The notes under the pieces are model-generated. The model did not search any database, was not told the DNA's origin, and was given only the letters and a program-made list of their open reading frames with translations. This document shows positions 1 to 6,692 of a stretch of DNA of 6,692 bases, one piece after another. A program made the position numbers and the translations under genes. Each line of letters starts with the position of its first letter. Within the stretch, counting starts at the first letter, position 1. Source of the stretch: a virus (Duplodnaviria; Heunggongvirae; Uroviricota; Caudoviricetes); IMG/VR virus record IMGVR_UViG_2651869782_000008; one strand, written 5' to 3'.

Positions 1-158
1 CCCCGCAGTACAACATCGAGATCAATAACGATGGCACGAACGGGCAGATAGGTCCGGCTGCCCTGAAGGTGGTTTATGACCTTGGGAAAAAAGCGGCAGC
101 GGACTTTATGCAACAGCAGGCCCGTGATGGTGGTCGGTTAAGTGGAGCATATCGGTAA
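1..158 (+). CDS. H: Tail tape-measure protein H, C-terminal end (5'-partial, reading frame starts at nt 3)
   Basis: Open frame from the window edge translating to ...PQYNIEINNDGTNGQIGPAALKVVYDLGKKAAADFMQQQARDGGRLSGAYR*, with stop TAA at 156-158. The stop overlaps the ATG of the next gene (TAATG), as at the lambda H/M junction. Position directly upstream of M fits the lambda order. Not in the ORF track because it has no start inside the window. Confidence 0.75.
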   Translation, partial: PQYNIEINNDGTNGQIGPAALKVVYDLGKKAAADFMQQQARDGGRLSGAYR

Positions 159-487
159 TGGAGACGTTTCACTGGAAAGTGCGCCCGGATATGAATGTGG
201 TATCAGAGCCGAAAGTGGTGACAGTGAAGCTGGGCGATGGTTATGAACAGCGTCGTGCGGCGGGACTGAATAACCAGTTGTCGACTTACAGCGTGACGAT
301 ACGTGTTCGTAAATGTGAACACCCATCTTTAAAAGCCTTTCTGGAACGGCACGGTGGCGTCCGCGCATTTCAGTGGACGCCACCTTATGACTGGAAGCCG
401 ATCAGGGTGGTTTGTCGTAAATGGTCGGCAAGCGTGGGGGCGCTGTGGGTAACCATAACGGCAGATTTTGAACAGGTCGTGGCATAG
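158..487 (+). CDS. M: Minor tail protein M (tail tip assembly)
   Basis: 109-aa ORF (METFHWKV...ADFEQVVA), the same length as lambda gpM and in the expected position between H and L. GGAG at 144-147 sits about 10 nt upstream of the ATG. Stop TAG at 485-487. Confidence 0.88.
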   Translation: METFHWKVRPDMNVVSEPKVVTVKLGDGYEQRRAAGLNNQLSTYSVTIRVRKCEHPSLKAFLERHGGVRAFQWTPPYDWKPIRVVCRKWSASVGALWVTITADFEQVVA

Positions 488-496
488 GAGGCTCTG

Positions 497-1195
497 ATGC
501 AGGATATTCCACAGGAAACACATCATGAGACGACACGCCTCACTCAGTCAGCCCAGGTGGTGCTCTGGGAAATCGATCTGACAGAGGTCGGTGGTGAACG
601 TTATTTTTTCTGTAATGAGCAGAACGAAAAAGGTGAGCCGGTTACCTGGCAGGGGCGGCAGTATCAGGCATACCCCATTCAGGGGACGGGATTTGAACTG
701 AACGGCAAGGGCAGTGCTGCCCGTCCGACACTGACGGTTTCTAACCTGCACGGAATGGTCACCGGGATGGCGGAAGACCTGCAGAGTCTGGTCGGCGGAA
801 CGGTGGTCAGGCGTAAGGTTTACGCCCGTTTTCTGGATGCGGTGAACTTCGTCAACGGAAACAGTGACGCCGATCCGGAGCAGGAGGTGATCAGCCGCTG
901 GCGCATCGAGCAGTGCAGCGAACTGAGCGCGGTCAGTGCCTCTTTTGTACTGTCCACGCCGACGGAAACGGACGGTGCTGTTTTTCCGGGGCGCATCATG
1001 CTGGCTAATACCTGCACCTGGACCTATCGCGGTGATGAGTGCGGTTATCACGGTCCGGCTGTCGCTGATGAATATGACCAGCCGACGTCCGATATCACGA
1101 AGGATAAATGCAGCAAATGCCTGAGTGGTTGTAAGTTTCGCAATAACGTCGGCAACTTTGGCGGCTTCCTTTCCATTAACAAACTTTCGCAGTAA
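497..1195 (+). CDS. L: Minor tail protein L (tail tip assembly, Fe-S cluster-binding)
   Basis: 232-aa ORF, the length of lambda gpL. AGGAGG at 486-491 lies 5 nt upstream of the ATG. The C-terminal region carries clustered cysteines (NTCTW, DECGY, DKCSKC, SGCKF) consistent with the [4Fe-4S] site reported for gpL. Confidence 0.88.
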   Translation: MQDIPQETHHETTRLTQSAQVVLWEIDLTEVGGERYFFCNEQNEKGEPVTWQGRQYQAYPIQGTGFELNGKGSAARPTLTVSNLHGMVTGMAEDLQSLVGGTVVRRKVYARFLDAVNFVNGNSDADPEQEVISRWRIEQCSELSAVSASFVLSTPTETDGAVFPGRIMLANTCTWTYRGDECGYHGPAVADEYDQPTSDITKDKCSKCLSGCKFRNNVGNFGGFLSINKLSQ

Positions 1196-2549: not shown

Positions 2550-5500
2550 ATGGGTAAAGGCAGCAGTAAGGGGCATACCCCGCGCGAAGCGAAGGACAAC
2601 CTGAAATCCACGCAGTTGCTGAGTGTGATCGATGCCATCAGTGAAGGGCCGGTTGAAGGTCCGGTGGATGGCTTAAAAAGCGTGCTGCTGAACAGTACGC
2701 CGGTGCTGGACAGTGAGGGGAATACCAATATCTCCGGCGTCACGGTGGTGTTCCGGGCAGGTGAGCAGGAGCAGACACCGCCGGAGGGATTTGAATCCTC
2801 CGGCTCCGAGACGGTGCTGGGTACGGAAGTGAAATACGACACGCCGATCACCCGCACCATCACGTCGGCAAACATCGACCGTCTGCGCCTGACCTTCGGT
2901 GTACAGGCACTGGTGGAAACCACCTCAAAGGGAGACAGGAATCCGTCGGAAGTCCGCCTGCTGGTTCAGATACAACGTAACGGTGGCTGGGTGACGGAAA
3001 AAGACATCACCATTAAGGGCAAAACCACCTCGCAGTATCTGGCCTCGGTGGTGGTGGATAACCTGCCGCCGCGCCCGTTCAATATCCGGATGCGCAGGAT
3101 GACGCCGGACAGCACCACAGACCAGCTGCAGAACAAAACGCTCTGGTCGTCATACACCGAAATCATCGATGTGAAACAGTGCTACCCGAACACGGCACTG
3201 GTCGGCGTGCAGGTGGACTCGGAGCAGTTCGGCAGCCAGCAGGTGAGCCGTAATTATCATCTTCGCGGGCGCATTCTGCAGGTGCCGTCGAACTATAACC
3301 CGCAGACGCGGCAATACAGCGGTATCTGGGACGGAACGTTTAAGCCAGCATACAGCAACAACATGGCCTGGTGTCTGTGGGATATGCTGACCCACCCGCG
3401 CTACGGCATGGGGAAACGTCTTGGTGCGGCGGATGTGGACAAATGGGCGCTGTATGTCATCGGCCAGTACTGCGACCAGTCAGTACCGGACGGCTCTGGC
3501 GGCACGGAGCCGCGCATCACCTGTAATGCGTACCTGACCACACAGCGCAAGGCGTGGGATGTGCTCAGTGATTTCTGCTCGGCGATGCGCTGTATGCCGG
3601 TATGGAACGGGCAGACGCTGACGTTCGTGCAGGACCGACCATCAGATAAGGTGTGGACCTATAACCGCAGTAATGTGGTGATGCCGGATGATGGCGCGCC
3701 GTTCCGCTACAGCTTCAGCGCCCTGAAGGACCGCCATAATGCCGTTGAGGTGAACTGGATTGACCCGAACAACGGCTGGGAGACGGCGACAGAGCTTGTG
3801 GAAGACACGCAGGCCATTGCCCGTTACGGTCGCAATGTCACGAAGATGGATGCCTTTGGCTGTACCAGCCGGGGGCAGGCACACCGCGCCGGGCTGTGGC
3901 TGATTAAAACAGAACTGCTGGAAACGCAGACCGTGGACTTCAGCGTCGGCGCAGAAGGGCTTCGCCATGTACCGGGCGATGTTATTGAAATCTGCGATGA
4001 TGACTATGCCGGTATCAGCACCGGTGGTCGCGTGCTGGCGGTGAACAGCCAGACCCGGACGCTGACGCTCGACCGTGAAATCACGCTGCCATCCTCCGGC
4101 ACCACGCTGATAAGCCTGGTTGACGGGCAGGGTAATCCGGTGAGCGTGGAGGTCCAGTCCGTCACCGACGGCGTGAAGGTGAAAGTGAGCCGTGTTCCTG
4201 ACGGCGTTGCTGAATACAGCGTGTGGGGGCTGAAGTTGCCGACGCTGCGCCAGCGCCTGTTCCGCTGCGTGAGTATCCGTGAGAACGACGACGGCACGTA
4301 TGCCATCACTGCCGTGCAGCATGTACCGGAAAAAGAAGCCATCGTGGATAACGGGGCGCACTTTGACGGTGACCAGAGCAGCACGGTGAATGGTGTCACG
4401 CCGCCAGCAGTGCAGCACCTGACCGCCGAAGTCACCGCAGACAGCGGGGAATATCAGGTGCTGGCGCGCTGGGACACGCCGAAGGTGGTGAAGGGCGTGA
4501 GCTTCCTTCTTCGCCTGACCGTGGCAGCGGATGACGGCAGTGAGCGGCTGGTCAGCACGGCCCGGACGACGGAAACCACATACCGCTTCAGGCAACTGGC
4601 GCTGGGGCGTTACACGCTGACAGTCCGGGCGGTAAATGCGTGGGGGCAGCAGGGCGATCCGGCGTCGGTATCGTTCCGGATTGCCGCACCGGCAGCGCCT
4701 GTCACTATTGAAATGATACCGGGGTATTTTCAGATAACAGCGGTCCCGAAACTGGCTGTATATGACCCGACGGTGCAGTTTGAGTTCTGGTTCTCGGAAA
4801 AGCGGATTGCGGATATCAGGCAGGTTGAAACCACAGCCCGCTATCTTGGCACGGCGCTGTACTGGATAGCTGCCAGTATCAATATCAAGCCGGGCCATGA
4901 TTATTATTTTTACATCCGCAGTGTGAACACCGTTGGCAAATCGGCATTTGTGGAGGCTGTTGGCCAGCCGAGTGATGATGCATCCGGCTATCTGGATTTT
5001 TTCAAAGGAGAGATAGGGAAAACCCATCTGGCTCAGGAGTTGTGGACGCAGATTGATAACGGTCAGCTTGCGCCTGACCTGGCTGAAATCAGGACGTCCA
5101 TTACGGATGTCAGCAATGAAATCACACAGACCGTCAATAAGAAACTGGAAGACCAGAGTGCAGCGATCCAGCAGATACAGAAGGTTCAGGTTGATACAAA
5201 TAATAACCTGAACAGCATGTGGGCTGTGAAGCTGCAGCAGATGCAGGACGGACGCCTTTATATCGCGGGTATTGGTGCCGGTATTGAAAACACCCCTGAC
5301 GGCATGCAGAGTCAGGTGCTGCTGGCGGCAGACAGGATTGCGATGATTAATCCTGCGAATGGCAACACAAAGCCGATGTTTGTTGGGCAGGGCGATCAGA
5401 TATACATGAATGAAGTGTTCCTGAAATATCTGACGGCTCCCACCATTACCAGCGGCGGTAATCCTCCGGCATTTTCCCTGACACCGGACGGGCGACTGAC

Positions 5501-6032
5501 GGCGAAAAATGCGGATATCAGTGGCAGTGTGAATGCGAACTCCGGGACGCTCAATAACGTCACGATAAATGAGAACTGTCAGATTAAGGGGAAACTGTCC
5601 GCCAACCAGATTGAAGGCGATATTGTCAAAACGGTCAGCAAGTCTTTCCCCCGCACGAGCACTTATGCCAGCGGCACCATTACGGTCACGATTAGTGATG
5701 ATCAGAAGTTTGACCGACAGGTCATGATCCCGGCTCTGCTGTTTAAAGGAAGCAGGAAGGAAAATTATGGCAGTAATAATCAACAGTCTTATGTTTATTC
5801 TGTATGCCGTTTGCAGGTAACGAAAAACGGGACAGAAATTTTTAATCAGTCAACAACGGATGCTCCGGCGGTTTTTTCTTCCGTTATTGATATGCCTGCG
5901 GGGCAGGGAACGTTGACGTTAAAGTTTACGGTCTCTTCTTCAATGGTCAATAACTGGACACCGACAACCAGTATCAGCGATTTGCTTGTTGTGGTGATGA
6001 AGAAATCCACCGCAGGTATCACGATTAGCTGA
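2550..6032 (+). CDS. J: Tail tip host-specificity protein J (central tail fibre)
   Basis: 1160-aa ORF with GGAG 8 nt upstream of the ATG. The N-terminal two-thirds are strongly lambda-J-like ([43 protein letters not shown]...). Two tandem fibronectin type III-like modules sit at about aa 615-800, followed by a heptad-like coiled-coil stretch and an AT-richer C-terminal domain. Confidence 0.93.
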
Positions 6033-6050
6033 ATTTTATAACCCATATAC

Positions 6051-6078
6051 GGGCGCCAGAAATGGCGCCTTTTTTATT
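6051..6078 (+). terminator. Rho-independent terminator downstream of J
   Basis: GC-rich 7-bp stem GGCGCCA (6052-6058) / TGGCGCC (6063-6069) with a GAAA tetraloop, followed immediately by TTTTTTATT (6070-6078). It begins 19 nt after the J stop. Confidence 0.75.
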
Positions 6079-6099: not shown

Positions 6100-6692
6100 A
6101 TGCGTAAAGTTTGTGCAGCAATTTTGTCCGCAGCCATTTGTCTGGCCGTATCCGGTGCGCCTGCATGGGCGTCTGAACATCAGTCCACGCTGAGCGCGGG
6201 GTATCTTCATGCCCGGACGAACGCTCCCGGCAGCGATAATCTTAACGGGATTAACGTGAAATACCGTTATGAATTTACGGACACGCTGGGGCTGGTGACG
6301 TCATTCAGCTATGCAGGAGACAGGAATCGCCAGCTGACCCGTTACAGCGATACCCGCTGGCATGAAGATTCCGTGCGTAACCGCTGGTTCAGCGTGATGG
6401 TGGGGCCGTCTGTGCGCGTGAATGAATGGTTCAGCGCGTATGCGATGGCGGGTGTGGCTTACAGCCGTGTGTCGACTTTCTCCGGGGATTATCTCCGCGT
6501 AACTGACAACAAGGGGAAAACGCACGACGTGCTGACCGGAAGTGATGACGGTCGCCACAGCAACACGTCTCTGGCGTGGGGAGCTGGCGTGCAGTTTAAC
6601 CCGACCGAATCCGTGGCCATTGATATTGCTTATGAAGGCTCCGGCAGTGGCGACTGGCGCACTGACGGTTTCATCGTGGGTGTCGGTTATAA
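6100..6692 (+). CDS. lom: Outer membrane protein Lom (Ail/Lom/OmpX-family beta-barrel), 3'-partial at window edge
   Basis: ATG at 6100 preceded by GAGAGG (6089-6094). Translation MRKVCAAILSAAICLAVSGAPAWA|SEHQSTLSAGYLHARTN... has a classic signal peptide with an AWA cleavage site. Alternating aromatic/hydrophobic beta-strand patterning (INVKYRYEF, WFSVMVGPSVRV, GFIVGVGY) is typical of Ail/Lom barrels. The frame is open to the end of the window. Position just after J and its terminator matches lambda lom. Confidence 0.85.
   Translation, partial: MRKVCAAILSAAICLAVSGAPAWASEHQSTLSAGYLHARTNAPGSDNLNGINVKYRYEFTDTLGLVTSFSYAGDRNRQLTRYSDTRWHEDSVRNRWFSVMVGPSVRVNEWFSAYAMAGVAYSRVSTFSGDYLRVTDNKGKTHDVLTGSDDGRHSNTSLAWGAGVQFNPTESVAIDIAYEGSGSGDWRTDGFIVGVGY

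Follow-up and report, generated by a model that had tools for sequence, protein, structure and literature searches.

A portable receptor-binding cassette at the C terminus of the J protein of a lambdoid phage, with OmpC as its likely receptor

We analysed a 6,692-nucleotide (nt) stretch of viral DNA (IMG/VR record IMGVR_UViG_2651869782_000008; this whole stretch is called the window) that carries an intact gene J, encoding the tip attachment or central tail fibre protein of a lambdoid phage. We found that the C-terminal receptor-binding domain (RBD) of this J is a recombinationally exchanged, portable cassette. The distal part of the RBD is an anciently separated allele lineage that was joined to the rest by recombination, and its protein has been held under purifying selection. 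Judging from the closest characterized relatives, OmpC is the likely receptor, and we put the probability of this reading at about 0.65. Entry of a lambdoid phage into one strain or another is determined by its J receptor-binding cassette. Because it sets the host strains, and because relatives of this allele sit in prophages that convert their hosts to production of cytolethal distending toxin (CDT) or Shiga toxin (Stx), the cassette also affects the spread of toxin genes. Hereafter, the window J and the window allele are the J gene and the J RBD of this stretch.

The window J was compared with the J proteins of phages lambda, 21, 434, PhiR70_1, and PhiR55_1, and, where named, with those of A8, phi330, and a prophage of Escherichia coli STECUZB006. 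Six J-specific Pfam domains scored above their curated cut-offs, in the order Phage-tail_3, FNIII-A_GpJ, Ig_J, Ig_J_second, Phage_Tail_Tip, and Ig_GpJ_C, and a PDB sequence search matched the window J to lambda J at E = 1e-102. The protein has the lambda-type architecture, namely, a hub, two FNIII/Ig domains, a helical shaft, a fibre prism, and a C-terminal Ig-like RBD. Amino acids (aa) 1 to 800 are about 97% identical to lambda and to all other references (21, 434, PhiR70_1, and PhiR55_1). An earlier note on this DNA, made from the sequence alone, had described the first part of J as GC-rich and lambda-like, and both descriptions hold.

The distal part of J consists of separately exchangeable modules: a helical stalk of the phage 21 type, a conserved β-prism fibre, and the C-terminal Ig-like RBD. 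The alpha-helical shaft (AHS), which comprises residues 809 to 861 in lambda (PMC11101478), is 36% identical to the shafts of lambda and 434 and 98 to 100% identical to those of 21, PhiR70_1, and PhiR55_1. The prism (aa 906 to 1000) is 78% identical to lambda, 95 to 97% identical to 21, PhiR70_1, and PhiR55_1, and 82% identical to the STECUZB006 J. Within it, the segment from about nt 5330 to 5550 is conserved, with roughly 90% aa identity to lambda. From nt 5550 to 6032, however, the sequence is divergent, and the RBD (aa 1001 to 1160) is only 42% identical to that of lambda. The earlier note had proposed an exchanged receptor-binding module at nt 5280 to 6032. The module is borne out by the contrast between 42% identity in the RBD and 97% in aa 1 to 800, as well as by the STECUZB006 cassette and the jump in synonymous divergence described below; the C-terminal domain is far from near-identical to that of lambda. 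However, the proposed limits do not stand, because they merge the conserved segment with the divergent RBD. The cassette begins at about nt 5505.

The length of J (1160 aa, versus 1132 aa in lambda) had also been taken as a clue to the exchanged module. The length is correct, but alignment placed all 28 extra residues in the helical shaft, at about nt 5055 to 5147, where lambda has gaps of 21 and 7 aa. Their assignment to the RBD was therefore rejected. Within the RBD, the indels relative to lambda cancel out (−4, +5, and −1). They lie at the lambda-equivalent positions 1012 and 1048/49 and beside 1107. Maddamsetti et al. (2018) described four hotspots of natural indels, and these positions correspond to three of them. 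Those authors found that the J specificity module (lambda residues 960 to 1132) recombines independently and is a hypervariable host-range module. They also saw nested indels upstream of the specificity region, which fits the shaft insertion seen here. The AHS is itself a second, independent module that occurs in two types, one in lambda and 434 and the other in 21, PhiR70_1, PhiR55_1, and the window, with 36% identity between the types. The 28 additional residues of the 21 type amount to four heptads and would lengthen the stalk that refolds upon receptor binding.

The J of the STECUZB006 prophage shares nt 5505 to 6032 of the window with only 3 mismatches in 528 nt. The adjoining segment (window nt 5343 to 5504; positions 6764 to 6925 of prophage locus L005 in NZ_CP171883.1) has about 35% DNA mismatch. 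Because this J combines a shared RBD with a different prism, the prism and the RBD must have been exchanged separately. PhiR55_1, the best whole-window relative, has an RBD that is just 61% identical to the window allele.

A second boundary lies inside the cassette. A8 gpJ is a natural E. coli prophage J C terminus used in the Eligo lambda chimeras, and PhiR70_1, on which a literature search found no paper, carries the same RBD as A8 on a stalk and prism of the 21 type, as in the window. Against PhiR70_1, the window DNA is near-identical up to about nt 5687 to 5729, where the mismatch rate rises from 0.046 to 0.27. By the Nei-Gojobori method, the synonymous divergence (dS) is 0.11 to 0.18 just upstream and 1.2 to 1.6 in the RBD, in which the nonsynonymous divergence (dN) is 0.10 to 0.12 and dN/dS is 0.07 to 0.09. 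For aa 1030 to 1160, dS is 1.59, dN is 0.117, and dN/dS is 0.07. Both dS and identity thus step at about nt 5636 to 5729. The jump in dS together with the low dN/dS indicates that the distal RBD did not arise by rapid diversification in place. A8 and the window share the Ig-like RBD fold, its length, and near-identical DNA to about nt 5690, but they differ at 22 aa in the distal RBD, with about 27% DNA divergence past nt 5690 and a dS above 1. The OmpC-dependent Stx2a siphophage phi330 (vB_EcoS_phi330; PV189401) is near-identical to the window in DNA from nt 5456 to 5686, including the L1-equivalent motif RTSTYASG. However, its fibre segment before nt 5456 is of another type, and from about nt 5687 it diverges from the window as A8 does.

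The window allele is rare. Its last 453 nt had some match in 2075 of 5426 complete E. coli genomes, but the identity was at least 95% in only 17 records, 9 of them at 99% or more. In a collection of 5.8 billion proteins, the 99% cluster of the window RBD comprises 44 proteins. Below it come alleles at 88% (phi330-like singletons) and 86% (A8-type clusters of 187 to 852 members), and the series, which is confined to Escherichia and Shigella, grades down to about 46%. The window RBD belongs to a clade of alleles that includes 21, A8, and 1A2, as a rare and anciently diverged sister of the A8/phi330 allele. The exchange of the cassette is ordinary, well-documented phage mosaicism, and OmpC-binding J alleles of this clade have already been characterized, engineered, and structurally solved. 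Conceptually, nothing is new here, because modular exchange of the J specificity region and its hypervariable nature have been amply described before. What is specific to the window is a rare, uncharacterized sister allele with deep synonymous divergence.

We then considered the receptor. The two characterized alleles closest to that of the window both belong to OmpC users. The phi330 RBD is 0.88 identical to the window RBD, with no indels, and its receptor was identified as OmpC by Keio knockout and complementation (PMC12502783). The A8 RBD is 0.86 identical, also with no indels, and its use of OmpC was established by delivery into ΔlamB and ΔompC hosts complemented with OmpC variants (PMC11338833). 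A8 has been solved in a closed state (PDB 9wca) and bound to OmpC (PDB 9wcb; A8 gpJ713 with three OmpC chains, entitled [quoted passage not shown]). When modelled with AlphaFold2, the window RBD was all-beta, with a confidence score (pLDDT) of 82. A Foldseek search with this model returned 9wcb and 9wca as the best matches (86% identity; template modelling [TM] scores of 0.77 to 0.79), followed by the lambda structures 8xck and 8xcj (42 to 43% identity; TM scores of 0.71 to 0.73).

More distant alleles were also compared. The PhiR55_1-type RBD is 0.61 identical to the window RBD. Its OmpC label rests on its likeness to the OmpC user 1A2, whose sequence was taken from noisy optical character recognition with frameshifting errors and shows only that the PhiR55_1 type is the closest among the references. 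Phage 434 (lambda h434), for which OmpC is the reported receptor, has an RBD of 0.46 identity; its J is of the same family and RBD fold family but has a lambda-type stalk, unlike the window J. Lambda J (P03749; PDB 8xck, and 8xcj with LamB) shares with the window J the hub and first Ig domain at 97% identity, the domain order, and the RBD fold. However, its stalk is 28 aa shorter, and the RBD identity is low (0.42), with indels present, so that the window RBD lacks a close likeness to this LamB-binding RBD, loops L1 to L4 included. The suggestion of the earlier note that the receptor differs from that of lambda holds as probable: a receptor other than LamB is plausible, given that both of the closest characterized alleles use OmpC.

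By analogy with lambda on LamB and A8 on OmpC, we propose that the RBD loops of the J trimer dock into a trimeric porin on its extracellular side. Upon docking, the RBDs would splay and the prism would tighten, the helical shaft would then refold, and the tail tip would open. The deposited closed and open structures of A8 imply the same order of events on OmpC. The window allele has the same fold as A8 and no indels relative to it, so it is expected to work alike, with a trigger mechanism as in lambda and A8.

Relative to A8, phi330, and 21, the window allele has 17 private residues, at positions 1062, 1063, 1066, 1068 to 1070, 1073, 1074, 1082, 1085, 1095, 1106, 1107, 1125, 1132, 1133, and 1158. 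Some of them lie at or beside the equivalents of the lambda variation and indel hotspots 1048/49 and 1053, 1077/78, and 1107. An attempt to place the private residues on the receptor-facing side from the secondary structure of the model was dropped, because the loop-alternation reasoning was inconsistent. A8 and 1A2 differ in the OmpC variants that they accept, and 2 of 23 variants were missed by both (Brodel et al.). Because of this difference, it is reasonable to suggest that the 17 private substitutions may tune which natural OmpC variants are recognized. Lambda-derived delivery particles are already being redirected to OmpC in the gut by means of natural J cassettes, and the window allele, as a distinct sister of A8 under purifying selection, is a ready candidate to widen the coverage of OmpC variants. 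A more speculative proposal, to which we give little weight, is that the core at about nt 5690 to 6032 is an old, rare lineage that balancing selection, driven by the receptor, has maintained next to the common A8 type. The private residues would then provide a spectrum that A8 and 1A2 lack, covering either the missed OmpC variants or another porin.

Several observations weigh against OmpC as the receptor of the window allele. Receptor choice is labile in this clade, since phage 21, whose native receptor is LamB, gains OmpC use by the single J mutation I1025T, and a protein divergence of 12 to 14% could matter. The largest cluster of private residues, aa 1062 to 1074, is not a described hotspot. 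By a hand count, a mapped hotspot is no more than 3 residues away for 5 of the 17 private residues, versus about 3.2 expected, which is not significant.

The main alternative is that the cassette binds LamB, as the native RBD of phage 21 does, and thus shares the receptor of lambda despite the difference in sequence. Phage 21 J (OL657228) has the same architecture and the same length of 1160 aa as the window J, with a stalk of 98% identity, a prism of 95% identity, and an RBD of the same clade. Its native use of LamB is documented, and beyond the OmpC gain through I1025T, further mutations add OmpF (PMC11336670; Borin preprint). At the site of that gain, the window retains I1025 and V1026, the ancestral state of phage 21. 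However, A8 and phi330 also carry I1025 and yet use OmpC. In addition, the RBD of phage 21 is 0.74 identical to the window and 0.82 identical to A8, and the window is nearer to A8 and phi330 (0.86 to 0.88) than to 21. At the 29 positions where A8 and 21 differ, a set in which the receptor-deciding ones are not singled out, the window agrees with A8 at 23, with 21 at 3, and with neither at 3. We therefore consider LamB an unlikely receptor, although it is the strongest of the alternatives to OmpC.

Less probable still is that the cassette recognizes another porin or receptor, such as OmpF, or two receptors, which would be a new specificity in the clade. The 17 private residues, the depth of the DNA lineage (dS > 1), and the rarity of the allele, with 44 proteins in its cluster against hundreds to over 1000 in A8-type clusters, would fit such a change, and both lambda and phage 21 can reach OmpF by few mutations. 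However, a dN/dS of about 0.08 against an OmpC-binding allele indicates a conserved protein without a functional shift, and nothing points positively to another receptor. We can largely dismiss the idea that no module was exchanged and that the C terminus evolved fast in place under diversifying selection, with AT-richness as a by-product of composition: hypervariability is a known trait of the J specificity region, and one GC step is common to all J genes compared (see below), but the divergence is mostly synonymous, dS rises about tenfold at the breakpoint while dN/dS stays low, the same cassette sits on a different backbone in STECUZB006, and the best whole-window relative has an unlike RBD.

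The GC content of J is 0.603 at nt 2550 to 4700, 0.496 at 4701 to 5279, 0.482 at 5280 to 6032, and 0.423 at 5740 to 6032, and the contrast between 5280 to 6032 and 2550 to 4700 is significant (chi-square P = 1e-8). The lowest-GC stretch of 453 nt in the entire window begins at nt 5675. Codon use contributes to the drop (GC at third codon positions [GC3] falls from 0.74 to 0.53), as does amino acid make-up (GC at first codon positions falls from 0.60 to 0.40); the window RBD has more N, K, S, T, and I and fewer G, A, P, and R. The GC profile is thus not flat. It has two steps, neither of which is at nt 5280. The first and main step, at about nt 4700 (J aa ~717), lies 580 nt upstream of 5280, at the boundary between the Pfam domains Ig_J and Ig_J_second, and coincides with the start of the structural-biology construct gpJ713. 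It is also present in the J genes of lambda, where the equivalent step is at about J nt 2100 to 2250, and of 21, PhiR70_1, and PhiR55_1, and the GC content falls to about 0.50 in all five. This step marks the hub/fibre boundary throughout the family. Because these four phages share it, it gives no sign of a swap relative to lambda, and GC at nt 4700 to 5550 was rejected as a mark of one.

The second step, over the last ~450 nt, sets the window apart from lambda, with a GC content of 0.457 versus 0.552 in the last 453 nt. In the last 345 nt it is 0.435, versus 0.539 in lambda and 0.467 in the A8/PhiR70_1 RBD, and the window value is the lowest of the 8 alleles compared. The AT-richness of the C terminus that the earlier note had pointed out is therefore real, but its main step is shared with lambda, and only the last ~450 nt are richer in AT than lambda.

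We also observed a small patch at about nt 4690 to 4780 (J aa ~714 to 745), where the two Ig/FNIII domains meet and the first GC step lies, in which substitutions relative to all five reference J genes are clustered. Relative to the STECUZB006 J, its substitutions include 6 aa changes. From its sequence, the patch looks like a small private micro-mosaic.

The window covers a lambdoid tail-tip operon that consists of the 3′ end of H, then M, L, K, I, and J, a hairpin, and lom (Table 1). The order M-L-K-I-J-lom matches that of lambdoid phages. Aligned over its full length, the window is 93 to 96% identical to a large number of lambdoid phages of Escherichia, among them PhiR55_1, Ayreon, cdtI, and mEp460, and about 95% identical to thousands of E. 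coli prophages. Searches of complete E. coli genomes and of phage records found no match to the whole window at 99% or more; the best full-length matches were about 95%. Single segments of the window match different records at 99 to 100%, and none of the searched genomes and records holds precisely these modules together.

Table 1. Coordinates of genes, J modules, and other features in the window
Feature	Position (nt)	Strand	Basis or remark
Gene M	158-487		Tail-tip operon
Gene L	497-1195		Tail-tip operon
Gene I	Ends 2489		After K
Gene J, tip attachment/central tail fibre protein, intact, 1160 aa	2550-6032	+	Open reading frame and translation
Hub part of J, GC-rich, lambda-like, aa 1-716	2550-4700	+	GC 0.603, GC3 0.74, dS versus lambda 0.13
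Second Ig/FNIII domain; family-wide GC step-down begins here	4701-5003	+	Pfam Ig_J_second, aa 716-818
Alpha-helical shaft (AHS), phage 21 type, aa ~801-905	4962-5264	+	Module-wise identity
Central straight fibre (β-prism), conserved linker, aa 906-1000	5265-5549	+	Pfam Phage_Tail_Tip, aa 872-1000
Exchangeable receptor-binding cassette (RBD, aa ~1001-1160)	5505-6032	+	Pfam Ig_GpJ_C, aa 1037-1160
Deep-lineage core of cassette, most AT-rich, holds the 17 private residues	5690-6032	+	Divergence step; GC 0.435 in the last 345 nt
Terminator-like hairpin followed by T-run, between J and lom	6051-6070	+	Consensus scan, 8-bp stem, 6 GC pairs
lom (Ail/Lom outer-membrane protein), cut by the window end	6100-6692	+	197-codon open frame, signal-peptide-like start

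The prophage in NZ_CP171883.1 that has the near-identical RBD cassette carries cdtA, cdtB, and cdtC, which encode CDT type I (locus L005, 10112 to 12212). These genes are placed just past the side tail fibre genes and adjoin ssrA. The best matches to the whole window also include phage cdtI. It is possible that the window, which ends inside lom, derives from a CDT-converting prophage.

In phage 21, a terminator is annotated after J at the site that the hairpin occupies in the window. The hairpin suggests that lom is transcriptionally separate from the late tail operon. Relatives carry a Lom annotation at the site of the open frame that follows it.

The start of gene I differs between annotations. 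In RefSeq, lambda, and phage 21, the gene is annotated from an upstream ATG (window nt 1842), which gives an overlap of about 100 nt with K, whereas the PhiR records place the start at the end of K (window nt ~1941); the alternatives are 1842 to 2489 and 1941 to 2489. Finally, an antisense open reading frame of 713 aa with a TTG start lies wholly within J, on the minus strand at nt 3642 to 5783, and its start at nt 5783 coincides with the GC drop. This frame is most likely not a gene but a by-product of J, whose GC-rich codon bias keeps it free of stop codons.

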